Below the pieces are notes generated by a model. The model was not told the DNA's origin. It made no database searches and was given only the letters and a program-made list of their open reading frames with translations. The translations under genes and the position numbers were made by a program. A stretch of 33,277 nt of DNA. Origin: a virus (lineage: Duplodnaviria > Heunggongvirae > Uroviricota > Caudoviricetes). Location of the stretch: IMG/VR virus record IMGVR_UViG_2778261295_000004; one strand, written 5' to 3'. This document shows positions 268 to 33,277 of this stretch, in pieces (position 1 is the stretch's first letter; the number at the start of each line of letters is the position of its first letter).

Positions 268-300
268 AAGCCCTCGCGTTGAGGGCTTTACTGATTTTTT
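268..300. terminator. Probable bidirectional intrinsic terminator between convergent grxA and ybjM
   Basis: Inverted repeat agccctc / gagggct with a 5-nt loop followed by a T-run (ctgatttttt); overlaps the ybjM stop codon. Confidence 0.5.
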
Positions 301-665
301 CTGTGCTGTGGTTTAAACAAACTACTGATAAATAAGAAACACAGTGCCCCCAGCGCACACCAGAACACCGCGCTTAGTAACCATGCCAGCTCTTGCCAGA
401 ATGAGCGCGTCGGTGAAAAAAACAGCCGCATAATGAGCATTGAACAGGGTGCCGCCAGCATTGCGCCAAATAGAGGTTTCAGGACTTCTCTACGCTGTGA
501 AAAGAAACTGGCAACTGCTCCAGGAAGAATGAAAAATAGCAAGCCGATTTCAGGATGCCCGGCAGCCCGAAAAGCGCCTTTCATGTGCGTCGCCAGAAAA
601 AGGCACACCACAATGAAGAGGACAAAACAGCAGATTGCCCCCGCCCAACGTTGTTTATGTTTCAC
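288..665 (-). CDS. ybjM: Inner membrane protein YbjM
   Basis: 125-aa strongly hydrophobic ORF, GTG start, in the conserved position between grxA and ybjL. Confidence 0.7.
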   Translation of the reverse strand: MKHKQRWAGAICCFVLFIVVCLFLATHMKGAFRAAGHPEIGLLFFILPGAVASFFSQRREVLKPLFGAMLAAPCSMLIMRLFFSPTRSFWQELAWLLSAVFWCALGALCFLFISSLFKPQHRKNQ

Positions 666-934: not shown

Positions 935-2620
935 GTGAATATAAACGTCGCCGAATTGTTAAATGGGAATTACATTCTGTTATTATTTGTGGTCCTCGCG
1001 CTTGGGCTATGTCTCGGAAAGTTACGACTTGGTTCGATCCAACTGGGTAATTCCATTGGCGTTTTAGTCGTATCGCTGTTATTAGGCCAACAACATTTCA
1101 GCATTAACACCGATGCGCTTAATCTTGGCTTTATGCTGTTTATTTTCTGCGTCGGGGTCGAAGCCGGACCGAACTTTTTTTCCATTTTTTTTCGCGATGG
1201 GAAAAATTACCTAATGTTAGCACTGGTGATGGTTGGCAGTGCGCTGGTGATCGCCTTAGGGTTAGGTAAGCTGTTTGGCTGGGATATTGGCCTGACGGCC
1301 GGTATGTTAGCAGGCTCTATGACGTCGACACCGGTTCTGGTCGGTGCTGGCGATACACTGCGTCATTTCGGCATGGAAAGCAGGCAGCTCTCACTGGCAC
1401 TGGATAATCTGAGCCTCGGGTATGCCTTAACCTATTTAATCGGTCTGGTGAGTTTGATTGTTGGTGCGCGTTACTTGCCGAAATTGCAGCATCAGGACTT
1501 ACAGACCAGCGCCCAGCAAATCGCCCGCGAACGTGGCCTGGACACTGATGCCAACCGTAAGGTTTATTTACCGGTGATCCGCGCCTATCGCGTCGGCCCG
1601 GAGCTGGTGGCCTGGACCGACGGCAAAAATCTGCGTGAACTGGGTATTTATCGACAAACCGGCTGCTACATTGAACGTATTCGACGTAACGGGATTCTGG
1701 CAAATCCAGACGGTGATGCCGTGCTACAAATGGGCGATGAAATAGCGTTGGTAGGCTATCCCGACGCCCATGCCCGACTCGATCCCAGCTTCCGTAACGG
1801 TAAAGAAGTTTTCGATCGTGACCTTCTCGACATGCGTATCGTCACTGAAGAAGTGGTCGTTAAAAACCATAACGCTGTAGGTAAACGTCTCGCACAACTG
1901 AAGTTGACCGATCACGGTTGCTTCCTTAACCGCGTCATTCGTAGCCAGATTGAGATGCCGATAGATGACAACGTCGTGCTTAACAAAGGTGACGTTTTAC
2001 AAGTCAGCGGTGATGCCCGTCGCGTAAAAACCATCGCCGATCGCATCGGCTTTATCTCGATTCACAGCCAGGTCACTGACCTGCTGGCATTTTGCGCCTT
2101 CTTTGTTATTGGGCTGATGATCGGGATGATCACCTTCCAGTTCAGCACATTCAGTTTCGGCATGGGGAACGCTGCCGGGTTGTTATTCGCCGGAATTATG
2201 CTGGGCTTTATGCGTGCTAACCACCCGACCTTCGGTTACATTCCGCAAGGTGCATTAAGCATGGTGAAAGAGTTCGGCTTGATGGTGTTTATGGCAGGCG
2301 TTGGTCTGAGCGCCGGTAGCGGTATTAATAACGGCCTGGGCGCGATTGGCGGTCAGATGTTGATTGCCGGATTAATTGTCAGTCTTGTGCCCGTGGTTAT
2401 CTGTTTCTTGTTCGGTGCTTATGTATTGCGAATGAACCGCGCACTGTTGTTCGGCGCAATGATGGGCGCACGCACCTGCGCGCCGGCAATGGAGATCATC
2501 AGTGATACAGCTCGCAGTAACATCCCTGCGCTGGGCTATGCGGGCACCTACGCAATCGCCAACGTCCTGCTGACGCTGGCAGGGACAATCATCGTCATGG
2601 TATGGCCAGGATTAGGATAA
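935..2620 (+). CDS. ybjL: Putative transporter YbjL (YidE/YbjL-type membrane transporter)
   Basis: 561-aa ORF (GTG start) with hydrophobic N- and C-terminal membrane halves around a soluble central segment; matches my recollection of E. coli YbjL. Confidence 0.85.
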
Positions 2621-2732
2621 AACTGAAGTTGCCCTGAAAATGAAATTTTTTTGCACAACCGCAGAACTTTTCCGCAGGGCATCAGTCTTAATTAGTGCCA
2701 CTGCTTTTCTTTGATGTCCCCATTTTGTGGAG

Positions 2733-2776
2733 CCCATCAACCCCGCCATTTCGGTTCAAGGTTGATGGGTTTTTTG
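2733..2776 (+). terminator. Intrinsic terminator-like hairpin downstream of ybjL
   Basis: cccatcaacc ... ggttgatggg inverted repeat followed by tttttt. Lies in the host/prophage junction interval 2621-2855 where attR is expected. Confidence 0.45.
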
Positions 2777-2855
2777 TTGCCTGAAATTTATACCCTTTAA
2801 AATCATGATGTTAGAAGCACTGCTTTTTAACGATGGCGACAAAATGGCGGCAGCG

Positions 2856-3074
2856 TCAAAGAGAGAGCGCCACCTGTCCTGATTTCATTGGATGCGGCTG
2901 AACCGGATTTGACTCTTTTGGCGTTGCAATCGAACGAACAAAAGTTTCATGGGTAACAAAAGTATGGCTGCAGTTAATGTTCTGGCACTGGTTGTAACGC
3001 TCTTTGGTCAATGAAGATACCTGAAAACTGCTGCGAGTATGGGCGGCACTTCCACACAGTGGGCAAATCATCAT
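2856..3074 (-). CDS. ogr: Late gene transcriptional activator Ogr (zinc finger)
   Basis: Small protein with CPLC ... CQNINC zinc-finger spacing resembling P2 Ogr; immediately downstream of D. Start refined to an internal ATG with an upstream GGAG (table ORF extends to 3107). Confidence 0.85.
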   Translation of the reverse strand: MMICPLCGSAAHTRSSFQVSSLTKERYNQCQNINCSHTFVTHETFVRSIATPKESNPVQPHPMKSGQVALSL

Positions 3075-3164
3075 TTTTCGAGTTCTCCCCATTTTTGCTA
3101 AATTCACAATAATGATACCGTATTATTCCATTTTGCAAACTTAAAAGTTCTCCATTGCGAAGAA

Positions 3165-4265
3165 TCATTCCATTTCGAAATCATCAATCCTCACTTCAAG
3201 CTCCAGACTGGTCGTAAAACCGTTATCCGGGCTGACGGTATGTGTCAGAGTCGTAATGGTCCATTCCGCATCATCTATCGGCTGTTTAAAACCACTGACT
3301 TTCACTGGCATTTCCGTGTAGAGATCCGCCCGCCCTTCTGCCAGTTGTAATGAGAATGACGCAACACCGCGTTGCAGGCGTTCCCACTGCATTTTCGCCG
3401 CTCGTTCGGCGTTGCTCCGGTTGGCATAAGTGCGATTAAGTACCAGCACGTTTTCATCCGTACCCACCAGGTAATCGCCCTGCTTCGCTTCCGGCTCTTT
3501 CTTCTGCTTCTTGGCCCTGCGCTTACGCTTCACTGTAGTGCTTTCTTTCTTCGTGGGTTCGCGGGTATGCAACCAGCTGGCAATTACGCCCGTGTAAGCT
3601 CCGCGATCCGCCAGGGTAAAGCGGTGACTGTCGCCGTCCTTACGTGTGATAGTGATCACCGACAGTGGTTTACCGCTGGCACTTTTACCCTGTCCCTGCC
3701 GGATGAATAACAGATTGCCATTTTTCACCGACGCAATAGCACCGTACTGGCGCGCCAGCCGCATCAGAAAACTACCGTCACTCTCATTAGTCTGGTCTAT
3801 ATGCTCCACGGGCTTATCCGACAGGTCTTTACCCAGTGCCATCTTCAGCTTGTGACGTGCGGCTATTTCCTTCACCACTTCCCCGACAGTGGTCTTGTGC
3901 CACGATTTTTCACGGCGGGTATTCAGCGTTTCCCTAAAATCAGCACTTCGCGCCCGGATAGTCAGGCGATCCGGTGCGCCAGTGTGTTCAATCTCGTCCA
4001 CCGTGAATGCCCCTTTCGGGAAAAGCGGCTGCCCTTTCCAGCCCAGCGCCAGCGTAATAACCGCACCACGGCGCGGCAGCACGATTTTTCCGTCGGCGTC
4101 GTCCAGCTCCAGATCAAGCTGGTCCGCTTCAAATCCCCGGTTATCCGTCAACGTCAGCCCCATCAGGCGGTTGTCCAGCACAGTGGTAATATCCCTGCCT
4201 TCAATACTGATGCTGAATGCCGGAGTTTTGTTGCCTTTGTTAACCAGTTCAGAGCTGAAATTCAC
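3165..4265 (-). CDS. D: Tail protein D (late control gene D)
   Basis: 366-aa ORF in the D position after U; GTG start overlaps the U stop (GTGA). Confidence 0.9.
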   Translation of the reverse strand: MNFSSELVNKGNKTPAFSISIEGRDITTVLDNRLMGLTLTDNRGFEADQLDLELDDADGKIVLPRRGAVITLALGWKGQPLFPKGAFTVDEIEHTGAPDRLTIRARSADFRETLNTRREKSWHKTTVGEVVKEIAARHKLKMALGKDLSDKPVEHIDQTNESDGSFLMRLARQYGAIASVKNGNLLFIRQGQGKSASGKPLSVITITRKDGDSHRFTLADRGAYTGVIASWLHTREPTKKESTTVKRKRRAKKQKKEPEAKQGDYLVGTDENVLVLNRTYANRSNAERAAKMQWERLQRGVASFSLQLAEGRADLYTEMPVKVSGFKQPIDDAEWTITTLTHTVSPDNGFTTSLELEVRIDDFEME

Positions 4266-22508: not shown

Positions 22509-23542
22509 TGGGAAAGAGTAAGAAGAACCGCGCTGCGTCGACGAACCAGATCCAGCATAAAAGCCAAACTTCAGCCGAAGCATTCAGCTTTGGCGATCCC
22601 GTTCCTGTTCTGGACCGCCGTGAACTGCTGGACTATGTGGAATGCGTACAGATGGATCGCTGGTATGAGCCGCCTGTGAGTTTCGACGGACTGGCGCGAA
22701 CCTTCCGCGCCGCCGTGCATCACAGCTCACCGATTGCGGTGAAATGCAACATTCTGACCAGCACCTACATCCCTCACCCGCTGCTCAGCCAGCAGGCTTT
22801 TTCACGTTTTGTGCAGGACTATCTGGTATTTGGTAACGCCTACCTGGAGAAACGCACGAACCGCTTCGGTGAAGTTATCACCCTTGAACCTGCGCTGGCA
22901 AAATACACCCGACGCGGTTTAGACCTGGATACCTACTGGTTTGTGCAATACGGCATGACCACGCAGCCGTATCAGTTCACGAAAGGCTGCATCTTTCATC
23001 TGATAGAACCGGACATCAACCAGGAGATCTACGGCCTGCCCGGTTATCTTTCTGCCATTCCGTCGGCCCTGCTCAACGAGTCCGCCACGCTGTTCCGCCG
23101 TAAATATTACATCAATGGCAGTCATGCTGGCTTCATCATGTATATGACCGATGCCGCGCAGAACCAGGAGGATGTGAACAACCTCCGCAACGCAATGAAA
23201 AGCGCCAAAGGTCCGGGTAACTTCCGCAATCTGTTTATGTACTCGCCTAATGGTAAAAAAGACGGACTTCAGATTATCCCGTTGTCAGAAGTCGCAGCGA
23301 AGGATGAATTTCTGAACATCAAGAACGTCAGCCGTGATGACATGATGGCGGCGCACCGCGTACCGCCCCAGATGATGGGAATTTTGCCGAATAATGTTGG
23401 GGGTTTTGGGGATGTGGAGAAGGCCAGTCGCGTATTTGTACGTAATGAATTAACGCCCTTGCAAAAAAGGCTACAAGAGCTGAACGACTGGCTGGGCGAA
23501 GAAGTGATTAAATTTACGCCCTATATTCTTTCAGAAGAATAA
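22508..23542 (+). CDS. Q: Portal (capsid vertex) protein Q
   Basis: Start refined to the ATG overlapping the P stop; the table ORF starts one codon earlier at TTG (22505). Confidence 0.9.
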   Translation: MGKSKKNRAASTNQIQHKSQTSAEAFSFGDPVPVLDRRELLDYVECVQMDRWYEPPVSFDGLARTFRAAVHHSSPIAVKCNILTSTYIPHPLLSQQAFSRFVQDYLVFGNAYLEKRTNRFGEVITLEPALAKYTRRGLDLDTYWFVQYGMTTQPYQFTKGCIFHLIEPDINQEIYGLPGYLSAIPSALLNESATLFRRKYYINGSHAGFIMYMTDAAQNQEDVNNLRNAMKSAKGPGNFRNLFMYSPNGKKDGLQIIPLSEVAAKDEFLNIKNVSRDDMMAAHRVPPQMMGILPNNVGGFGDVEKASRVFVRNELTPLQKRLQELNDWLGEEVIKFTPYILSEE

Positions 23543-23550
23543 TTCCGAAC

Positions 23551-24249
23551 TTATTTGTTTCTTCTTTGTTCACGCCTTGTCTTGGCTTCGATAAGGCGTT
23601 GAGGTTCAGTGTAAAGCCGTTCTAAAAAAAGATAGGTAAAATCTTCAAGATCCTCAGCAGCAGCTTTATCCAAAATACCTTCATGCGCGCCATCATTTCC
23701 GTCATCTTTAACGCATTCAGCTAGTTCCCTTAAAGCTTCAGGCAATAGATGATTATCAAATAACCAATCCATTCTTAACCCTAGGCTTCTCCTTATTTTT
23801 TGCGCAGGCCCTTGCTCCCCATCAGGAAGAAGTCCTTTTGTTGCATAATCAAGGCAAAGCCTAAACATGGTTGCTGCTGCATTATAACAACCAATAGCCA
23901 AACATTTCGCCCCTTCCTCATATGCACTATTGATATGCTCAGGTAAGAACTCTGGCGGCTCCTCTACTGCTAAGTCTGCCGGTGATATAGGCCTAACAAC
24001 CTCTGCAACTTCCTTTAAGCCGAATATTCCACTTTCCCAATTATAGCCATCTAAAGTTTTATTTTTCGTTAAAGGTCTGCAAAGAAACATTGTCGTTTTA
24101 TGACACTCTCGGCAAACACAATAGACCTCGTATTCGTATGTTTTACCCCCGCCCAATGCATTGTAAACCCTAGTGCAATTCAGCCCATTAACATCAAACG
24201 CTATTTTTTGTGATCCACATCGTGGACAGTCATCCACTAACATAACCAT
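23551..24249 (-). CDS. Cargo protein: N-terminal zinc ribbon plus C-terminal DUF4145/HEPN-like domain (candidate abortive-infection or defence effector)
   Basis: 232-aa ORF with strong GGGAGGAG Shine-Dalgarno; Cys motifs CPRC and CVCREC near the N-terminus; C-terminal ...LRELAECVKDDGNDGAHEG... resembles the GN-x-x-AH core of DUF4145 as I recall it; AT-rich compared with flanking phage genes. Confidence 0.55.
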   Translation of the reverse strand: MVMLVDDCPRCGSQKIAFDVNGLNCTRVYNALGGGKTYEYEVYCVCRECHKTTMFLCRPLTKNKTLDGYNWESGIFGLKEVAEVVRPISPADLAVEEPPEFLPEHINSAYEEGAKCLAIGCYNAAATMFRLCLDYATKGLLPDGEQGPAQKIRRSLGLRMDWLFDNHLLPEALRELAECVKDDGNDGAHEGILDKAAAEDLEDFTYLFLERLYTEPQRLIEAKTRREQRRNK

Positions 24250-24359
24250 GTCAATTGCTCCTCCCTATGAAAAAAATGAGTTGAAAAATTGAATATTCAC
24301 GACTTAAAAAGCTAGCCTATTTAACACCATAATTTCATTAATTCAACCATGAGCGCGCG

Positions 24360-24378
24360 CTCGTATCCCCGCCACGCC
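24360..24378 (-). other. Candidate cos cohesive-end core
   Basis: Minus strand reads GGCGTGGCGGGGATACGAG, matching in its first 13 nt my recollection of the 19-nt P2/186 cohesive end (GGCG(A/T)GGCGGGGAAAGCA...); adjacent perfect palindrome GAGCGCGCGCTC at 24351-24362. Confidence 0.4.
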
Positions 24379-24427
24379 TGCCCGCTTTGTGTAGTGGTTT
24401 TCATGCAGGTGCCTGATCCACGCAAAA

Positions 24428-24450
24428 GCCCGCCAGTTCTGGCGGGCCTT
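24428..24450 (-). terminator. Intrinsic terminator downstream of the 372-aa cargo gene
   Basis: gcccgccag / ctggcgggc stem followed on the minus strand by TTTTG; lies about 65 bp past the stop of the 24514..25632 gene. Confidence 0.5.
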
Positions 24451-24513
24451 AGCAAAAACGATCCTCAAACGGTCATGCAAATTCAGGCAGCATAGGCATG
24501 CACTGTTGTTAGG

Positions 24514-25632
24514 TTAGTTCGTAATGCCAATTTCCTTCAAAACTTTAGCCATTTCCGTCTGACTTAACTTGTTCCTGAACAAAGGGAAATTTTTCATTTT
24601 TTCCGCTCGTTGCCCTTTTGAAATAGTAATCTTTCCTGATGCTGATAACTCAGAGTCAAAAAAATAACATATTGTTGAATTTGAATTCTCCATATTTGAC
24701 TTGATACAATTCCATATGCTTTCTTTTTTCATTTCACACATTCTAGGACCAAAAATGATCCCTTTAACAACATTAGCATCATGATGAAAAATATGTCCAA
24801 TATTTCGATTTACGCGTCTTTGAACATGCCGCTCACTCCCTATTCCTGCATTTGCCTCTGGAATAAACATTCGATATTCAGCTTCATATCTCCAAAATCT
24901 ATTTTTAGTTAAAAATAACTCTGCAACATTTGCGCTTGGGTCTAGAAGTGAAACCTCTTTAGCCTGATTACTATATTTTATTTGCTTAACTGGAAAATTA
25001 AATTTATCTGATGAAAATAAATTTTCTCTTAGCTTCATTCCAGGATGTGGCACGCCATTAATATTAAAATCCTGCGTTTCATAAATCACAACACAACCAC
25101 TAAAGCCTGCAGCATAATGCGCCCACATCATACGATCTAACGCATTAGCTGAAAATGACACACTGAATACTGCAGGAACTATTTTCCTATACAACCTTTC
25201 TTTGATACTGTTCTCGCAAAGTGAGACCAAAAATTGGCGTGGTTCAGGAATATTCCCATAAATAGCGGAATTAATCACATTGATAGGTAGTAAACCATCA
25301 TTTATGATCTTACGTATCTCATCAACGTGTGAGTCAAACAGGCTATCTAATGACTCAATGCTACTTTTTATTTTTTTTCCTCTAAAAATACGATTCAATC
25401 CCTTATGTATCTTCAAATTACTCAAATCTAATATGTGACTCAAATTTTCATAGGATTTATCGCAAGGAGAACGCAATAAAATATCCCATAATTTCAATTT
25501 ATTATCAAAACGATAATCTATATTGAGATCATTAGGATCATTCAATTGCGCAGGAGCGGAAAAATATAATTCATTATAACGAATAGCTTTCTCGAAGAAG
25601 AAGTCCGGACGGTAATACTTGAAAAGATACAT
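24514..25632 (-). CDS. Cargo protein with DUF2971-like N-terminus (candidate anti-phage or abortive-infection protein, function unknown)
   Basis: 372-aa ORF, ATG start; N-terminal LFKYYRPDFFFEKAIRYNELYFSAPAQLNDPND resembles the DUF2971 signature as I recall it; strongly AT-rich and Asn/Lys/Ile/Phe-rich unlike the phage backbone. Confidence 0.55.
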   Translation of the reverse strand: MYLFKYYRPDFFFEKAIRYNELYFSAPAQLNDPNDLNIDYRFDNKLKLWDILLRSPCDKSYENLSHILDLSNLKIHKGLNRIFRGKKIKSSIESLDSLFDSHVDEIRKIINDGLLPINVINSAIYGNIPEPRQFLVSLCENSIKERLYRKIVPAVFSVSFSANALDRMMWAHYAAGFSGCVVIYETQDFNINGVPHPGMKLRENLFSSDKFNFPVKQIKYSNQAKEVSLLDPSANVAELFLTKNRFWRYEAEYRMFIPEANAGIGSERHVQRRVNRNIGHIFHHDANVVKGIIFGPRMCEMKKESIWNCIKSNMENSNSTICYFFDSELSASGKITISKGQRAEKMKNFPLFRNKLSQTEMAKVLKEIGITN

Positions 25633-26137
25633 GACATTACCTATAACATTGCAATATTAACAACCGTATGAAAACGGTTTGATTGTATTGATAATATCCT
25701 ATTCTGCATATACCACAGTGTAAAGATTAATTTTAAATACCATATCCAACAGTAAATCATGTATCGACCGCCAGATAAGAAGCTTTTGAAAAACTTGGAC
25801 AATAATTAATCAAAAGGTAAGAGATACTCTTCAAATACATGACGTTGGCTTCCTCTTTCGTGATAACTATCAAGACCAAGTCCATTAGATAATGGACATC
25901 AAATATTCCAAGTCAATCCAAGAACAATCATCATAAGCTCTTCCCATCCTGTATCCTCTATCTCACTCTTTTGGACATTGAAAGAAGCCCCTCTGACCGG
26001 GAATGATTGTTTCCAGCGTTTGACCACGATATACAATATGATATTTGATGTCTTTTGATCAGATGGCTAACGCCTCGCACAGCTCGTTGTTCAACCTTGC
26101 TGACGCCAGAAGCAAGTTCAGACGCCAGCAACGTTTC

Positions 26138-26371
26138 TTAATGCAGCCAGCTGTCGTCTTCCCACACCTTCTGCATAATTTTCATCACTTGTTTTCTTTC
26201 TTCGTCCAGTTGCAGTCCGGTCAGTTCCACACCGTTAGAGCTACCTTTGCGGATACGAATTACCGTTTTGGGATACAGGGGGCGCAGATTGCGGTAAAGC
26301 TCGGATTCAAGGGCGTCCAGGGTAGACTGGCTAATTTTCTGCTCTTTATCGATCATTATTTCAATGCGCAT
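26138..26371 (-). CDS. DinI-like SOS-response protein
   Basis: Start refined to internal ATG (MRIEIMIDKEQ...) with GAGGTG upstream; N-terminal MRIE... and C-terminal acidic W-containing tail resemble E. coli DinI. Confidence 0.8.
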   Translation of the reverse strand: MRIEIMIDKEQKISQSTLDALESELYRNLRPLYPKTVIRIRKGSSNGVELTGLQLDEERKQVMKIMQKVWEDDSWLH

Positions 26372-26381
26372 AAAAGTCACC

Positions 26382-26570
26382 TCAGCTGATGACATCCATT
26401 GAGCGGTTGTATTCGTGGCTTCTGATTTTTGCCATGAGTTCATCAGTCAATTCAGAAACCCACTGCAGAGCCAGCCCCTTCTCTTCATCACTACACTCAC
26501 TAGCCGCTACAAGCTTAAGAAAAAAATCAATGCGCTGGAGCTTCAAAGACTCCAAAAAATAGTCCTGCAT
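26382..26570 (-). CDS. Small protein (62 aa), first gene of the LexA-box operon; possible Tum-like antirepressor
   Basis: Internal ATG preceded by a perfect AGGAGG; the upstream part of the table ORF (to 26672) contains the LexA box and so is unlikely to be coding. Confidence 0.5.
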   Translation of the reverse strand: MQDYFLESLKLQRIDFFLKLVAASECSDEEKGLALQWVSELTDELMAKIRSHEYNRSMDVIS

Positions 26571-26611
26571 TTTTCCTCCTATGACACCACAAGCAATACT
26601 GTACACATAAC

Positions 26612-26631
26612 CACTGTTTATATTTACAGTA
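26612..26631. promoter_or_regulatory. LexA box (SOS operator)
   Basis: cactgtttatatttacagta fits the CTGT-N8-ACAG consensus with an AT-rich spacer; lies about 40 bp upstream of the small ORF start. Confidence 0.65.
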
Positions 26632-26723
26632 TATAATAATCTTACTGATGTAAAACGTTTTTTTACGTTCATCAGCCTGATATGCCTGGTATTATTAAGA
26701 GCACGAATTGTTAACCCGCGTAA

Positions 26724-29102
26724 TTAATACAGATCCCGCCACTTATCATCTTCCTGCAAACGCTGGTTCCGATAGAAGATACGCAGGCCTGCTCCTGACG
26801 GAATACTGCCGCCGCGAAGGAGTAAATCGACCTCTTTCTCGCTGCCATCAAATCCTCTGGACTTCAGTTCATAGACGAGCTGCTGTCGTTGATGGTCTGT
26901 AATTCGCTGTTTGTAGTCTCTACGCCGTTTCGGTTTCACCAGGCGTAACCTTGCAGCCAGTTCCCGGCGTTCTTTTTTGTTCATACTGTGCAGGTAATCG
27001 TGCAACTCCTTGTCATCCATACGGGTGATATCCGTTCTGGTATCCCCATCAGCTGATTTGTCTTTCCCTTGTTGGTACAAATTTTCAGCAAGGGGACAGT
27101 TATTGCCACGAGTCCGAGTCCAAGGGGCGCAAGCGCCCTGGTCGGCTGCCGCCTCCTGAACATCAACGGCCTTACGAACCATTTTCCACTTCACGGCATG
27201 AGTGCAGATCTTGCCCTCTGCAATAGGTGACCAGATGCCATAAATACGAATGCCGTGATCGCCATAGGCGGTCGGCTCTTCGTTGATTTCATAAGCGGTT
27301 CTGATGAGGTGATATTTGCGGGGAACCAGTACGCCGCCCTGCTTCATGATGTAGGTGGCAAAACAACCAGCATCAGCAGCAGCCAGGATGGCATCAAGGC
27401 GCGGGTTATCCAGTACCGGCGCACCTGCTTTTTTGTCCCCCTGTTGCCTTGCCGCCTGACCAGCCAGCAATCGCAGTTCACGGTAAGCCTGACGCCCCGG
27501 AATGCCAAAGAAGCGGAATTGCTGAACACGATGCAGAGACGCCCAGGCATTAACGTATTCAGCATTATCACGCAGGGATTTCCCCGTTTCCTTGCTGATC
27601 TCGCCAGCCAGACCACGCCCGTCAATGTTCTTACTGATGTATTTCGCGATGTAGCTTGTTGGCGTACCTTTGCGCGGGTTAATCAACTCAGACTTAAAGC
27701 GCGGCCCAGTGTTATTGCCCAGTTCCTCGCGGTCTTCACGGATGGCAAACTTACGCAGTAATGCAGTGATGGCGCGGCGGTCTTTTTTGCGCATAAAACA
27801 CAACAGGTGCCAGTGAACTGTACCGTCATGATGCGGCTCAGCCACCCGCACGCCATACCACCGCAATCCGGCTTTGTGCATCGCCTTACGAAATGCAGCA
27901 AACATGCCGACCAGATAATCACTGCTTTGTCTTACCGTCGCATTTGTCCAAGTTGGGTTGGGCCTGCCATTATTTAGCGTGGAATGGAAACGTGACGGAC
28001 AGGTGATGGTGTAGAAAACGGCGCAGTCACCGCGCATTTCCGCGATAAGCTCCAGGCCTTTAACACAGGCCATCATCTCATTGCGGCGATGCGCAGGGTT
28101 GCTGCTGCTGGCGTTTACCACATCCTCCATGTCCAGCGTGTCGCCGTCTTCGTTCACCAGTTCATGAGAACGAAAAAACTCCAGCGACTTACGGCGCTGC
28201 TCACGTTTATGCATCACGGCTTCATAGCTGACATAGGGAGATGCTTTTTTGCTGACCAGGCAGACAGCACGCAACTGCTCTTCCCGCCATTCGCAACGCA
28301 TCTTCCATAATTTCCGGTACCACCAGTCAGCGCACAACATACGCGCCAGCGAACCCGGAATGAGTTCATAGGGCACGGGTTTACGGCGGTTTCTTTTCCG
28401 GCGGAGTTGCTCAAACGCAGGCGGGATGACATCCAGACGCAGGGTTTCCGCTGCCACCTTTTCCCATGTCTTGCGGATTTCTTCTGGCTTAACGTCATCG
28501 GTGACATACAAATCGCCACAAGCTGCATCAAGGCACATGCTCATATGCGCAGCTACCAGGGTGGACAGGCGTTTCACCTGATCCTGACTCATTTCAGGCA
28601 GGATCAGCAGGCCGTCCAGCCCTTCATGGCTTGCCATAAAGCGAAAAGAAGTGGATAGCTGACAGTCGCGTACATGCTCCAGCCGTTCCAGACATGGCTT
28701 AATCGTCTCACGCAAATAGCGGGAATAAGCCTTTGGCCTGCCCAGGCTGCTGAAGTATTCAATACGTTGCATCAGTGGCTTGCTGATATGGGAAGGCTGG
28801 GCATTAACGTCCGCCAGAATGACCATATCTGGATTAAAACGCTGCTGCTCATGCGCCAGCTTTGCCCGACTAATGAGCTTATCCTGCTCCATTTCGCGCT
28901 GGACAGGATCACGGGATTCATTAAAGAAATAACGCTCCCAGACCTGATCACTCAGTGCCTCGCGGCGCAGCTGTTCCTGCTCGTTATCGGCAGCGTACAG
29001 AGCGATCAGGTTTGAAAGCGCAGAAACTGAAGATTGCTCTTCCGTCTCTACGTAAGGATTGATTGCTTTTTTCTCAGCATTCCAGGAATAGCTGTAGTTC
29101 AT
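26724..29102 (-). CDS. A: Replication initiation protein A (rolling-circle endonuclease)
   Basis: Large ORF containing ...[18 protein letters not shown]... and ...[12 protein letters not shown]... motifs typical of P2 gpA-family initiators. Start placed at ATG 29102 (GGAGA upstream, TAATG overlap with the upstream gene); table ORF extends to 29153. Confidence 0.9.
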
Positions 29103-29932
29103 TACGCAATCTCCAGTTCGAGCTGTGAAGGCTGCAAACCATTCGACAGCCAATCAGAAACTGAAGGTGGGCGAACAGCTTCAATTGCACCTTTTAAAAT
29201 TGCGCAACGGTTTTTCAGAATGACAGCTTTCAGCTCCTTTTCCGTCAGATTGCGCGAATACTCAGCCTCCTGAATAGCCCGCGTCAGCTCAGGATATTTG
29301 CTATTAAATTTGGGGACATTGCAGGCAAGATTTGTACTGTCGGCAGTCGCCAGTGGGTAATTTCCCAACACACGACCGTCAAGCATGCGCAAACCATGAA
29401 CAGCTGTTTTGAAATTGTGTCGGCAATAAATTGCTTCAAAAGCGTCCTGCATACGACGATGCCAGTGCGCAGTTCTGATAGCCGCATATTCACCAGACGA
29501 TCCAAAGCAGACACGAGGCCATTCACGACATAGCTCGATAAGCCGATCGATTGACTCGTGCAGATGCCAGACGGGAGTTGCCTTCCCGTAGAACATTTTC
29601 GGAACTTCGTTTATCAGGGCATCATTGTCACGTTCACCTCCGTCCACAACATCAGGAATGACAAAAAAAGCGACCTTAGGATGGTGGTAATAGTTCAGGA
29701 GCCATTTATAAAAATCACTCCAGTTAATTTTTAGCCCACGCACCCATGCAGAAAATGCGCCGTTATCAATGCCGACGACCTGAGCGTGCTGAATGGACGC
29801 CGCAATCTGATCTGGTCGTACATAGGAGACGAAAGCGCCAGCTCCGCTCACCGCAATACGATGAACGTCGCCAGCACTTCCCCAGACAGGCGTCCCATGG
29901 AAATGATGAATTCCGTGGTGCATTTCTTTCAC
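29102..29932 (-). CDS. Hypothetical protein between dam and A
   Basis: 276-aa ORF, GTG start overlapping the dam stop (alternative ATG at 29923); translationally coupled on both sides. Confidence 0.5.
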
Positions 29933-30783
29933 ACTTGCACCCCGAAAATAACAGTAGAGTCACGTCCCCTACTAAAATCGGCACTAAACCAATTAGCAGA
30001 TTTAGTGGCAATCATCTCTGTTGCAAATTTTCCCTCCCCCGCTGCAACGCCGATGCTGCGTTTCGCCCTGATGTAGTGGTGAGTGAAATTACGATAAAGG
30101 GACCGGGTCAAAGACGTGTTACTGTTAGAAACAATGACCGGATGTCCTTCTGATGACCGATGTTCAAGAATGGATGCCAGGTGATACTGATCATCTTCAG
30201 TGAAACCATCAGTGTGATAGCCGGAAAACGTACCGTCATAAGGCGGATCGCAATACACCACATCCCCCACCTTCAACATCGCCAGCGTTTCATCAAAGCT
30301 GGCGCAGATAAACGTTGCCCGCTGGGCTTTCTCTGCAAATGCGCGAATTTCTTTTTCAGGGAAATACGGATTTTTATAATTACCGTAGGGAATGTTGAAA
30401 TGCCCGCTCTTGTTATAGCGACATAAACCACGGTAACCGTGACGATTGAGATACAGGAAATATACCGCTTTCATGAAATCAGTAATTTCAGTGGAGTAAT
30501 TAAACTCCTGCCTTATGTTGTAATAAGCCACCTCCCTGTTTGCTTCCTCAAATAAAGCTCTGGCACGAGATATAAACGCCTCACAATCAGCAGCAACCTT
30601 TTTATAGAGGTTGATTAAATCAGGATTAATATCCGCAACAAGATAGCTGGGGTAATCCGTCTCCATCATCACTGCACAGGAACCCGCGAAAGGTTCAACC
30701 AGTCGCGGGCCAGCAGGAAGATGCTTTTTCAGTTCGGACATTATGGCGGTTTTATTTCCTGCCCATTTCAGGATGGTGCTCAT
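29929..30783 (-). CDS. dam: DNA adenine methyltransferase (Dam family)
   Basis: Start refined to ATG ([11 protein letters not shown]...) with GGAGGTG upstream; contains the ILKWAGNK and DPPY motifs of Dam-type N6-adenine methyltransferases. Confidence 0.85.
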
Positions 30784-31007
30784 ACAGCACCTCCGTTGTA
30801 ATGTTTGCCTTTCAGCTCTGCGATTTCCTGACAGGTAATGCAAAGCTGCACACCCGGAATGGCACGGCGGCGTGCTGGCGGAATTGGCGCTTCACACTCA
30901 ACGCAAAGCACGCGGGACACGCCCGGCGTTTTGGCACGGGCAGCACGGATATGGCGTTGGCGTTCTTCTTCAACGCGCTGCTGTACGAGATCCATTGCAT
31001 CAGCCAT
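30780..31007 (-). CDS. TraR/DksA-family C4 zinc-finger protein
   Basis: 75-aa ORF with CVEC ... CITC spacing; ATGA overlap with dam. Confidence 0.75.
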   Translation of the reverse strand: MADAMDLVQQRVEEERQRHIRAARAKTPGVSRVLCVECEAPIPPARRRAIPGVQLCITCQEIAELKGKHYNGGAV

Positions 31008-31240
31008 CAGTGGATCTCCTGCGCTTCGTTCTGGATTGCTTCAGCAGTCACACGCAGCAGTTCTGCCGCTTCGACGTGGTTTAGCTGGCGGGAGGTGATA
31101 TGACACGCCAGGCTATCGAGGCGAGCAGCCATTGCTTCAGCCCTTGCCCGGCGTTCTTCCAGACGAGCCTCTGTCAGTAAAAGATTAAGACCTGCATCAT
31201 CCGGTCCGGTTTTGGTCGTGAGGGTTTCAATATTACGCAT
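31007..31240 (-). CDS. Hypothetical early-operon protein
   Basis: Start refined to ATG (MRNIETL...) with AGGAGA upstream; ATGA overlap with the downstream gene. Confidence 0.5.
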   Translation of the reverse strand: MRNIETLTTKTGPDDAGLNLLLTEARLEERRARAEAMAARLDSLACHITSRQLNHVEAAELLRVTAEAIQNEAQEIH

Positions 31241-31307
31241 AAGCAATTCTCCTGAATTTAGATAAAGGGATGCCCGGCGGGTTTACGCCATTAATTTCAT
31301 TAGTTGG

Positions 31308-31649
31308 TTAATTCGGCATGGTTAGCCGTCTGGGAAATAAGCTCACCACTGCACGAAAATGATTCATTGCTTTAATCAACTCCCGCTTTTCGTCAGTGGT
31401 CAGCTCATTAATGCTGATGCTATGACGTTCAGCTGGAATTTTTGCCATAAAGAATATGGCAGCCAGTGCCCGTTTATTTTGTTCATTATTGATATCCCGA
31501 GGATCACGCATATCTTTAATAAACCGCTCAAGCTCTGACTCAATATTCAAACCAAAAACTTTCGCCCTTAACTCCGCAATATGATTAAGTCCATTCAGGC
31601 GTTCACCGGGTCTTAATGGAACAGTCGCCGCAGCGCCTTCAATAGCCAT
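31308..31649 (-). CDS. Hypothetical early-operon protein
   Basis: 113-aa ORF, ATG start, same strand and operon as cII and A. Confidence 0.5.
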   Translation of the reverse strand: MAIEGAAATVPLRPGERLNGLNHIAELRAKVFGLNIESELERFIKDMRDPRDINNEQNKRALAAIFFMAKIPAERHSISINELTTDEKRELIKAMNHFRAVVSLFPRRLTMPN

Positions 31650-31813
31650 TTGTTCCCCCGTTTTTTCGTAGATAGTTCTGCCAGCAATTCATCTTGTGAA
31701 CGGCACGGATGCCAGCGTTTACCATCCTCACCCATGATCCAGCCGTGACCGTAGTGCATTGCCGGACTTTGTTTTACCAGCAGCGATGCAAATGATGGTT
31801 CTTTCGTCAGCAT
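31613..31813 (-). CDS. Hypothetical small protein
   Basis: Start refined to ATG (MLTKEP...) with GAGGTG upstream; contains HPC/WH residues. Confidence 0.4.
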   Translation of the reverse strand: MLTKEPSFASLLVKQSPAMHYGHGWIMGEDGKRWHPCRSQDELLAELSTKKRGNKWLLKALRRLFH

Positions 31814-31820
31814 AAGCACC

Positions 31821-32330
31821 TCACAGCAAACCGAATGAAGCACCGAGGCCAGTCACGGTATCAACTGCACTCGCCATCGCAGGATTAGCCTGTAAACGGG
31901 CCTGCAATGAAACAGCGGCCAGCGCCATCAGTCGTGTTACAGAGTTAATGCTGCTGATAGCATCACGACGACCTGCACTGGTTTTTACATCGCCAGATAC
32001 CGCACCTGCAGCAACACGCCCGATCTCTGCGGTTGCACTCATGACATAATGCGGCAGTTTCTCTTTTGCCACCTCATTAATCGGTACACATGGCAGGCAG
32101 TGAATCTGTGCCAGAAAGCCATCTACCAGCGTTGAATCTTCAGTCAGATCGGTAAGCAACCAGATTTCTGGTGCGGTTAATAAATGAGGTTGAGCTGGGT
32201 TCAGCTTGTTCCGCAGAATCTGTACATTCATGCCTGCACGTTCTGCCAGTCGCACCAGGTTGTGGCGCAGTGCGAATGCACGACAGGCTTCGTCAAAATG
32301 TGGATGTTTGGAAACTTGATAATCAAACAT
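31821..32330 (-). CDS. cII: CII-like lysogeny establishment regulator (186 CII-type)
   Basis: 169-aa ORF directly downstream of apl/cox on the lytic strand; the length equals what I recall for 186 CII; call is by position and size, not by a verified alignment. Confidence 0.55.
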
Positions 32331-32362
32331 AGTCAGCCCCTTCCCTTTATTTCAAAATCGAA

Positions 32363-32584
32363 TCAATTGATTACGACATTGGAATCGGCAAGCGCATCCA
32401 CTGTCATGGCTGCAATGTTGATCATTACCTTTTCACGTTTTTTATCCTTGCGAAGACGATGCCGCTTAAGGCGTCCATCTGCGAGCATACTGTTGATAGT
32501 GTCTACAGATAACCCTGTGAGTTCACTGTACTTTTCAACCGAAATGGATGGGACAGCTAATGTGATTGAAATGTGCTGAGTCAT
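32363..32584 (-). CDS. Excisionase / lytic-switch repressor (Apl/Cox-like)
   Basis: 73-aa basic protein with helix-turn-helix-like segment (SVEKYSELTGLSVDTINSMLADGRL), first gene of the operon divergent from cI; AGGAGA Shine-Dalgarno. Confidence 0.65.
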   Translation of the reverse strand: MTQHISITLAVPSISVEKYSELTGLSVDTINSMLADGRLKRHRLRKDKKREKVMINIAAMTVDALADSNVVIN

Positions 32585-32635
32585 AAGGCAACATCTCCTG
32601 TTTAAGTGTGTTTAACATTGACGAGTAGTTGTAAG

Positions 32636-32709
32636 TCACATTTTGAAATCAATGCGACTATAAGATCACAAATTGAAATCGTCAACCATAAAGTTCACAA
32701 GGTGAAATC
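32636..32709. promoter_or_regulatory. Three direct repeats TCACA-N3-TGAAATC in the cI / apl switch region (candidate operator sites)
   Basis: Copies at 32636-32650, 32666-32680 and 32695-32709, spaced 30 and 29 bp; the third overlaps the cI ribosome-binding site. Confidence 0.5.
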
Positions 32710-32710
32710 G

Positions 32711-33277
32711 ATGGATTTTAGTCAAGGTGGAAAGAAAGCTATCGAAAGGATGGTTGAAGCCTATGGGTTCACTACAAGACAGGCGTTATGTGAACAACTA
32801 GGCATATCAAAAAGCAGTCTTGCTACACGCTACATGAGAGATTCATTCCCTTCTGATTGGGTTATTCAGTGCGCGCTCGAAACAGGAGTAAACATAAAGT
32901 GGCTGGTAACAGGCTTACCTCCTAAACATGAATATTTAACGTCTGACATCATCAATATTCAAAAAATAAAATTGATTGATGGAGTGCTATTGGATGCAGG
33001 AACACTAATGTTTGACAAAGTGTTCATTCCTGATGGTTTATCATCACCATCTGTGATATCAAACGGGAATAACTCTTATTTTATTGAGAGGGATTTCACA
33101 GATGTAGTTGATGGTGATTGGTTAATCTCCATTGATGGAAAGCATTCTATAAAACAAGTTATTAGAATTCCTGATAATAAAGTTAAGATTAACTATGGGA
33201 ATATCATTGTTGATATGAACATTAATGACCTTGTATTCATCGGCAAAGTTATAGCAGAATTCAAGATAAGAGGCTAA
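32711..33277 (+). CDS. cI: Immunity repressor CI (186-type)
   Basis: Start placed at ATG with AAGGTG upstream (table ORF starts at GTG 32606); N-terminal HTH-like segment (TTRQALCEQLGISKSSLATRYMRD), divergent from apl/cox; stop codon is the last three bases of the window. Confidence 0.7.
   Translation: MDFSQGGKKAIERMVEAYGFTTRQALCEQLGISKSSLATRYMRDSFPSDWVIQCALETGVNIKWLVTGLPPKHEYLTSDIINIQKIKLIDGVLLDAGTLMFDKVFIPDGLSSPSVISNGNNSYFIERDFTDVVDGDWLISIDGKHSIKQVIRIPDNKVKINYGNIIVDMNINDLVFIGKVIAEFKIRG

Follow-up and report, generated by a model that had tools for sequence, protein, structure and literature searches.

The small RNA gene rybB has been described as an insertion site of P2-type prophages in Escherichia coli W, B and Crooks, whose elements Rybb*W, Rybb*B and Rybb*Cr were assigned to the 'rybB ncRNA', and Rybb*B of E. 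coli B is known to carry the retron Ec86 (Archer 2011, PMC3032704). A Klebsiella prophage was later located 'precisely within the gene for ... RybB' (Hudson 2014, PMC4048246), and rybB was listed as hotspot #29, with similar prophages in 109 E. coli genomes (Hochhauser 2023, PMC10121019). In addition, Klebsiella phage 4LV2017 (Elveevirus) has a GenBank record in which the reverse complement of ATGGGTTTTTTGTTGCCTG is marked as attL and attR, and which has the Klebsiella rybB gene at its end. Our literature searches found no paper that gives the core sequence of this system, a 27-bp as against a 14-bp core, the attB alleles or the arm-site geometry.

Two classical phages offer further points of comparison. 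The core of 186 corresponds to 36 bp of the 3' end of the tRNA-Ile gene ileY (ACTCATAATCGCTTGG...), and in the annotated genome of this phage the crossover is predicted in the first 7 bp of the common core. P2, whose core in the annotated genome is AATCTCCCTTACACGGGCTTATTTTTT, has as its target locI, a small RNA locus that corresponds to the cyaR (ryeE) RNA (PMC3032704 Table 2).

Here we describe the interval 2621-2855 of a 33,277-nucleotide stretch of DNA (the whole of which is hereafter called the window), where a segment of host chromosome meets a prophage. This interval is almost certainly the ogr-proximal junction of a P2/186-like temperate phage that integrated site-specifically at the 3' end of rybB. 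The initial annotation was to be contradicted by an integrase end that maps to a known att locus; rybB is a published one, both in the three reports cited above and in the att annotation of 4LV2017. As an insertion site it is already known and very common for P2/186-like phages, and the finding is real but ordinary.

Results

Gene content of the window and its relatives

The genes that frame the window and the prophage are given below in window coordinates.

1-258: grxA, the host gene that opens the window
288-665, minus strand: ybjM, host gene
935-2620, plus strand: ybjL, aspartate:alanine antiporter family (Pfam Asp-Al_Ex and TrkA_C; RefSeq annotation of the RM10740 region), the host gene upstream of the junction
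2856-3074, minus strand: ogr, late-gene activator (Pfam Ogr_Delta, E 5e-22; RefSeq annotation of identical junctions), the terminal prophage gene, oriented toward rybB and ybjL
32363-32584, minus strand: Cox-like excisionase/repressor (PHROG phrog_575 'Cox-like excisionase and repressor', E 3.6e-26)
32711-33277, plus strand: CI-type immunity repressor (Pfam Phage_CI_repr and Phage_CI_C), the last gene of the window

These positions bear out the initial reading that the prophage abuts the 3' flank of ybjL, with ogr facing the host gene. Beyond ogr come gpD and then a complete P2-type set of tail, lysis, head, replication and regulatory genes, and the structural, lysis, replication and regulatory genes all appear as intact ORFs. 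The control region is 186-like, comprising CI, CII, Fil and a DinI/Tum-like gene together with the Cox-like ORF, which sits at the cox/apl position and is divergent from CI. Its sequence makes the Cox-like protein the likely directionality factor for excision, although neither BLASTP similarity to 186 Apl nor a Pfam match was found for it. The prophage additionally carries a DUF2971 gene as cargo, which is a PADLOC candidate (PDC-S31).

The initial annotation had assumed that the window reaches the integrase end of the prophage. It stops instead at the CI stop codon (33277), and the integrase gene lies beyond it. The far end was inferred from relatives, the structural part from RM10740 and the immunity region from ECO2947. 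Over positions 1-24501 the window shares 99.8% identity with the annotated grxA/ybjM/ybjL-prophage region of E. coli RM10740, and positions 31300-33277, which hold the immunity region, are 100% identical to ECO2947, where CI is followed in order by two cargo genes, the integrase gene, the arm sites, the core and rcdA. No complete genome matched the window as a whole, and 23000-33277 was covered at more than 86% by 0 of 5426 genomes. On the evidence of these alignments, the window prophage is a mosaic whose cargo and immunity segments have been replaced.

Break points of the junction in E. coli genomes

A megablast search with window positions 2400-3150 against 5426 complete E. coli genomes recovered the full ybjL-rybB-ogr junction in 1109 of them, ATCC 8739 (Crooks) included; elsewhere the match ends at 2791. 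A 301-bp K-12-type empty site spanning rybB and rcdA served as query in the reciprocal search of the same genomes. The uninterrupted rybB-rcdA site was present in 4227, and in the remaining 1196 the site is split, with the rcdA-side piece beginning exactly at the equivalent of window position 2765. About one in five complete E. coli genomes has a prophage at the rybB site.

Because prophage-free genomes match the window to 2791 only and lysogens are split at 2765, the junction is, by this comparison, a true prophage-chromosome boundary and not a chance adjacency, and the empty sites of prophage-free E. coli confirm that it lies where the initial annotation had placed it. The interval 2621-2855 is composed of 144 bp of host-only DNA (2621-2764), the 27-bp core (2765-2791) and 64 bp of phage arm (2792-2855).

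A record labelled as a plasmid (NZ_CP148327.1) was considered as a mobile copy of the site and rejected, as it carries the chromosomal segment potG...ybjL together with half of the prophage. It is a chromosomal fragment that probably became a separate record through misassembly.

An intact rybB gene in the junction

RybB is a sigma-E-dependent, Hfq-binding small RNA. The host-only part of the junction and the start of the core hold the following elements of its gene.

2663-2696, plus strand: rybB promoter region with sigma-E-type elements, as read from the sequence
about 2697-2776, plus strand: gene of the small RNA RybB, full-length and not changed by the insertion (RF00110; identical to the empty sites)
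2731-2771, plus strand: RybB terminator hairpin with a 12-bp stem and a T-run (six T) at 2770-2775 (RNA fold; Rfam structure line)

The sole Rfam match in 2300-3400 is RybB (RF00110, 2700-2778, plus strand), scoring 105.3 bits (E 2e-22; gathering score 40), and all 79 model positions (1-79) are aligned without truncation. The G of GCCACTG (2697) is the first base of the RNA, and through 2778 the gene is identical to the K-12-type and O157 empty sites. For E. coli in general, a RybB transcript of roughly 80 nt has already been established. Candidate sigma-E elements consist of aGAACTT at 2663-2669 (GAACTT at 2664-2669), a 16-nt spacer, TCTTA at 2686-2690 and the G at 2697, and this promoter region has the same sequence in both types of empty site. 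Transcription of rybB has been found to be RpoE-dependent (PMC5736990). In this regard, the GAACTT/TCTTA arrangement, as far as its sequence goes, is that expected of an RpoE-dependent rybB promoter.

Folding of 2697-2776 gave -25.2 kcal/mol (z = -3.17 against shuffles), and the resulting terminator coincides with the structure line of the Rfam alignment. A simple terminator scan of 2500-3200 returned nothing; it missed the RybB hairpin because it allows loops of at most 8 nt and the RybB loop is larger. A host terminator-like hairpin in the 235-bp junction had been reported in the initial annotation, and it is indeed present as a 12-bp stem plus T-run at 2731-2776. The annotation missed the gene, however: the hairpin is the terminator of rybB, itself the target of integration.

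No terminator was detected between the convergent ogr and rybB genes. The RybB hairpin was considered as a bidirectional terminator and, on inspection, rejected in that role, the minus strand being without a T-run after the hairpin. In the empty sites of a K-12-like strain and of O157:H7 the gene order is ybjL - rybB - rcdA (ybjK); in the window ybjL is found upstream of rybB, and the prophage separates rybB from rcdA.

Attachment core and attB alleles

Alignment of the window junction with two empty sites, three integrase-side junctions and two contiguous attP sequences delimits two nested features.

2765-2791: attachment core ATGGGTTTTTTGTTGCCTGAAATTTAT, 27 bp, common to the window junction, the phage attP and the O157-type empty attB
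2765-2778: invariant 14 bp ATGGGTTTTTTGTT, identical in all eight aligned sequences

The core takes in the final 5-7 nt of the stem of the terminator and continues through the U-tail into the 15 bp that follow rybB. Both the 27-bp and the 14-bp core occur in a single copy in the window. To that extent the initial annotation was right that the core is not definable from the window alone, but it is easily defined once outside sequence is brought in. The direct repeat to be sought at the integrase end can be read in relatives, the 14 bp ATGGGTTTTTTGTT being present at both junctions of RM10740.

The K-12-type empty site reads GGTTG ATGGGTTTTTTGTT ATCTAAAACTTAT CTACTACC. The ogr-side junction of RM10740, which is the same as that of the window, reads GGTTG ATGGGTTTTTTGTT GCCTGAAATTTAT ACCCTTTAAAATC, and its integrase-side junction reads ACATAA ATGGGTTTTTTGTT ATCTAAAACTTAT CTACTACC. 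The 14 bp are thus shared exactly by the two RM10740 junctions and the K-12-type attB, with four differences in the next 13 bp. To the right of the 14-bp block, all four phage-type bases are found at the ogr-side junction of RM10740, and all four host-type bases at the integrase-side junctions of both RM10740 and ECO2947. Given this segregation of the four mismatches, strand exchange in K-12-type hosts must, as far as junction sequences can tell, fall within 2765-2778. By its likeness to the predicted, unmapped crossover of 186, the 7-bp crossover would probably lie at about 2766-2772.

The O157:H7 empty site consists of ATGGGTTTTTTGTTGCCTGAAATTTAT followed by CTACTACC and is identical to attP at 27/27 positions, against 23/27 for the K-12-type attB. 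The 27/27 allele occurs in roughly 400 genomes, mostly O157:H7 in the sample, and the rest have three or four mismatches; these frequencies are estimates from a spread sample of ranked matches and not a full count. In most of the genera examined the host side after the T-run reads GTTGCCTGAAAT, which makes the phage-type sequence the common enterobacterial one and the K-12 version a diverged allele. The integrase-side junction of Escherichia sp. MOD1-EC7003 has phage-type bases across all 27 bp.

Inverted repeats were also considered as core-type Int sites (ATAAAT...ATTTAT in attP and TTCAAGG...CCTGAA in attB). They were rejected, being about 19 bp apart, unlike an overlap of 6-8 bp.

Phage arms and the integrase side in relatives

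The phage part of the interval comprises the following features.

2792-2855: phage P' arm, the first phage-only DNA, found in the contiguous attP of KP12 but not in empty sites
2833-2852, plus strand: two tandem putative arm-type integrase motifs, ATGGCGACA and ATGGCGGCA, 11 bp apart (pattern scan)

RM10740 and Klebsiella phage KP12 have integrases that are 100% identical. The KP12 record has ogr directly after int, and the sequence between them is the predicted attP, in which int is followed by the arm sites, a hairpin, the core ATGGGTTTTTTGTTG(T)CTGAAATTTAT, a P' arm as in window 2792-2855, and ogr. The P arm of KP12 matches the arm found at the integrase-side junction. For the window prophage, the attP of the excised circle would read CATAAATGGGTTTTTTGTTGCCTGAAATTTATACCC. 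ESSI2_ev040, whose Int is 86% identical, likewise has a contiguous attP, which shares the initial 19 bp of the core (ATGGGTTTTTTGTTGCCTG); tandem arm motifs lie on both sides of it, and genes other than ogr follow the P' arm. The record vB_EcoM-813R9 was rejected as a source of attP, as it runs into rcdA, ybjJ and ybjI and comprises a prophage plus flank.

Every attP and integrase-side junction has, before the core, a small hairpin, AACCC(A/G)TTT-ACAT-AAATGGGTT, with a T-run (-9 kcal/mol). Located immediately downstream of int, this hairpin probably terminates the lysogenic operon.

The tandem arm motifs of the window end 3 bp before the ogr stop codon, and the tandem pattern TGGCGRCANNRTGGCGRCA occurs once in the 33-kb window, against 0.01 occurrences expected. 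Relative to the core, tandem TGGCGRCA motifs lie at -115/-104 on the P arm and at +68/+79 on the P' arm. A tandem motif about 114-115 bp upstream of the core was found in 16/16 tabulated integrase-side arms from several genera, these loci having been chosen for the presence of both core and tandem motif. On the integrase side of the window prophage, tandem TGGCGACAAAGTGGCGGCA would be expected some 114 bp ahead of ATGGGTTTTTTGTT. Read as its reverse complement (TGYCGCCAYTT), the motif agrees at 10/11 positions with the arm-type consensus of 186 Int, YAYCGCCAYTY (NC_001317). The final codons of int in RM10740 overlap the P-arm motif. Insertion of a glycine-rich ORF in ECO2947 has displaced the int stop codon by about 700 bp, and there the motif persists in non-coding DNA, its distance from the core unchanged. 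This retention despite the moved stop codon argues that the motif acts as a DNA site and not as coding sequence.

Predicted IHF sites accompany these motifs. The consensus WATCAANNNNTTR (TAACTTATTGATT on the opposite strand) is found at -52 in 11/16 P arms, and a pattern scan of the P' arm gave an IHF-like site with one mismatch at 2801-2813. The integrase of relatives with the same junction contains the Pfam domains Int_N and Phage_integrase and can be aligned over its full length with 186 Int, at 56% identity.

One scan of species-representative genomes with the integrase yielded 77 loci. Among integrases of at least 85% identity, the 14-bp core is exact in Escherichia, Klebsiella, Raoultella, Citrobacter, Silvania, Scandinavium and Kluyvera, and relatives in Enterobacter and Salmonella have a version that is nearly the same. 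An rcdA homologue is found within 2.5 kb at several of these loci. Integrases at about 55% identity or less are found without this core.

Comparison with described systems

The P2-like prophages known from the rybB site (Rybb*W, Rybb*B, Rybb*Cr, Kpn38RybB, those of hotspot #29 and 4LV2017) have the same target, core repeat and gene order as the window, with ogr adjoining rybB and int adjoining rcdA. The annotated attL and attR of 4LV2017 correspond to the first 19-20 bp of the core. Window positions 2792-27000 align over 82% of their length with KP12 and 4LV2017, and in this aligned part the structural region has an identity of about 96-97%. The differences between these prophages and the window are confined to the cargo and the immunity module; as cargo, the window has its DUF2971 gene, whereas E. 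coli B has retron Ec86 and 4LV2017 a retron St85-type pair.

Phage 186 resembles the rybB-site phage in having tandem sites on both arms and the CI/Cox-like/CII/Fil/DinI-Tum gene set, and in carrying the 3' end of an RNA gene, so that the host gene is restored. Its arm-type sites have the same motif and lie at -116/-105 from the start of the core, against -115/-104 here. The two differ in the core itself, which is located at the ileY 3' end in one and at the rybB terminator in the other, and in the lysogenic-operon terminator, which in 186 lies beyond the core, whereas the equivalent hairpin is part of the core here. The Cox-like protein has no counterpart by similarity in 186 Apl.

With P2 the rybB-site phage has in common a tyrosine integrase, arm sites on both sides, a probable role of IHF and Cox, and the position of ogr adjacent to attP. 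The P2 core is also 27 bp long and also has a T-run, but its sequence is unrelated to the core described here. In addition, P2 Int is only 35% identical, the P2 arm-type motif is TGTCCACA-like and not TGGCGRCA, and the immunity system differs. The initial annotation did not recognise a classical P2 or 186 attachment site in the junction, and this judgement holds: the P2 and ileY cores are different, and ARAGORN found no tRNA in the whole window.

Discussion

The features described above suggest how integration would take place. The phage attP carries ATGGGTTTTTTGTTGCCTGAAATTTAT, whose first 11 bases (ATGGGTTTTTT) provide the descending strand and T-tail of the hairpin that follows int; in the chromosome, the same ATGGGTTTTTT forms the end of the RybB terminator. 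Recombination would then join phage and host where two different terminators have their descending strand and T-tail. A tyrosine integrase, encoded past the end of the window, would bind the tandem arm-type sites on both phage arms, probably aided by IHF, and would exchange strands inside the first 14 bp. Because both partners are identical across these 14 bp, rybB would be rebuilt base for base. In line with this notion, the core starts inside the terminator and runs through the U-tail, and to judge from the junction sequence rybB is for this reason restored unchanged by integration. At the other junction, next to rcdA, the integrase gene would keep its hairpin. Excision would need the Cox-like protein encoded at 32363-32584.

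Other explanations of the junction have to be weighed against this one. It is hardly credible that the hairpin is merely the terminator of ybjL or a generic intergenic terminator, and that the phage targeted anonymous intergenic sequence with no gene in it. It is true that ybjL is without an obvious terminator of its own in 2621-2696 and that its read-through may also stop at the hairpin. However, the covariance match to RybB is full-length and reaches 105 bits against a threshold of 40, a conserved candidate sigma-E-type promoter lies correctly spaced upstream, the core starts inside the terminator stem of the RNA, and the literature names rybB as the target. Strand exchange in the distal part of the core (2779-2791), instead of the first 14 bp, is in turn very improbable. 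The O157-type attB is identical to attP over 27 bp, so that sequence alone cannot place the crossover there, and the integrase-side junction of MOD1-EC7003 is phage-type throughout; this last pattern is nevertheless explained if the host has the 27/27 allele. The mismatch pattern of RM10740 and ECO2947 can only arise if strands are exchanged to the left of 2779, no stretch other than the 14 bp is invariant in all attB alleles and attP variants, and the spacing of the arm sites matches that of 186, where the crossover is predicted at the beginning of the common core.

The junction could also be a fossil, in which a fixed prophage has lost the ability to excise and 2765-2855 are relics. Many P2-like prophages found in genomes are defective, and the frequency of that state would speak for a fossil, as would the mosaic nature of the prophage, with its replaced cargo and immunity segments, and the location of the integrase gene outside the window. 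Against this, the gene modules are intact as ORFs, the core and both arm-type motifs are perfect, and phage records exist for near-identical elements, in one of which attP is contiguous. On balance we regard a fossil junction as unlikely. The matter bears on the present activity of the prophage only, and the identity of the site is unaffected by it.

Integration of a P2/186-like phage at the 3' end of rybB, with exchange in the first 14 bp of the core, is the reading that we retain. A wider proposal can be built on it, in which the hairpin after int would serve as the crossover site through mimicry of the RybB terminator, the attB alleles would set the efficiency of integration, and convergent read-through would link the phage to sigma-E. 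That all three parts hold jointly seems to us improbable. If they did, recombination would take place terminator with terminator, and the attB alleles of O157:H7 (27/27) and K-12 (23/27) would set a lineage-specific integration efficiency. Moreover, late-operon read-through could run antisense across rybB at induction, or rybB read-through could run over ogr under envelope stress; either is conceivable because no terminator was detected between ogr and rybB.

The 27-bp and 14-bp cores, the attB alleles and the arm-site geometry are routine refinements of a known system, and the current understanding of it is unchanged by these results. Their value is mainly one of annotation: the 235-bp junction holds an intact regulatory RNA gene, and the boundary of the prophage can be set to the base, with a shared core at 2765-2791 and phage-only DNA from 2792. 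The prophages of the rybB site deliver variable anti-phage cargo, and exact boundaries help in the comparison of such islands. Taken together, the case illustrates the general rule that the 3' ends of genes for small stable RNAs, be they tRNA, tmRNA or sRNA genes, serve as targets of temperate phages, which carry a copy of the RNA-gene end that they displace, so that the host gene survives.

Variation at the rybB-rcdA attachment site

The 13 bp directly 3' of the RybB T-tail occur in at least three alleles in E. coli; an empty rybB-rcdA site of the O157:H7 type (L086, 1566-1592) was compared with one of the K-12 type (L002, 3366-3392). The O157:H7-type allele is exactly the phage attP sequence, and the other alleles differ from it by 3 or 4 mismatches. 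Despite this perfect match to attP, every O157:H7 site sampled was empty. The host flank of the integrase-side junction also varies: in Escherichia sp. MOD1-EC7003 (L009, 3628-3670) the sequence beyond the 27-bp core is CTACTACTACC, as opposed to CTACTACC in E. coli, and this is a 3-bp repeat expansion directly adjoining the core.

NZ_CP148327.1 (42 kb) is labelled as plasmid pZ1323HEC0475-2, and its content is the chromosomal stretch from potG through ybjL, followed by rybB and half of a P2-like prophage; the record probably reflects an assembly error or represents a piece of the chromosome. Two further contigs, JAEWTL010000113.1 and L074, belong by label to 'Bacillota bacterium' metagenome-assembled genomes. 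The former carries an integrase copy 99% identical to the E. coli type, together with the core and rcdA, and its label likely results from contamination or mis-binning. The L074 contig encodes a 51% identical relative of the integrase, and neither core nor rcdA was detected on it.

Variable segments of the prophage and its relatives

Relative to the E. coli lysogen RM10740, window 24501-26140 is a variable cargo segment, and a second segment, 29027-30008, is without a megablast match to that genome. The following features lie in or near these segments:

24514-25632, minus strand: DUF2971 protein of 372 aa, with a match (E 3e-23) to PDC-S31, a family that PADLOC lists as candidate defence
23551-24249, minus strand: DUF4145 protein, weakly matching PADLOC PD-T7-4 (E 1.4e-6)
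29102-29932, minus strand: ORF of 276 aa within the second segment

The DUF2971 ORF is flanked by the portal gene and the replication region, a position that holds retrons, TIR or AIPR genes in related prophages. The DUF4145 protein is shared with RM10740. The second segment is flanked by the replication endonuclease and a methylase, and searches of its 276-aa ORF against Pfam and PADLOC gave no match in either.

The E. coli relative ECO2947, in which the immunity region shows 100% identity with window 31300-33277, has two insertions (L006, 5480-7213 and 8422-8736). The one between CI and int encodes an AAA ATPase together with a DUF4276 protein, a pair matching PADLOC HEC-01A/B (E 2e-154 and 6e-63), and an ORF of glycine-rich GGG(L/M)YTGP repeat units is inserted between int and the arm-type sites.

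Possible origin of the attachment core

In phage 186, the annotated terminator of the lysogenic operon (L088, 931-958), GGCCACTCTCTCGAGTGGCC, is directly succeeded by TTTTTGTTGCCT, and these 12 bases recur as the central part of the attachment core in the rybB phages. Given this shared sequence, a 186-like ancestor may have supplied the core of the rybB phages from the terminator region of its lysogenic operon.
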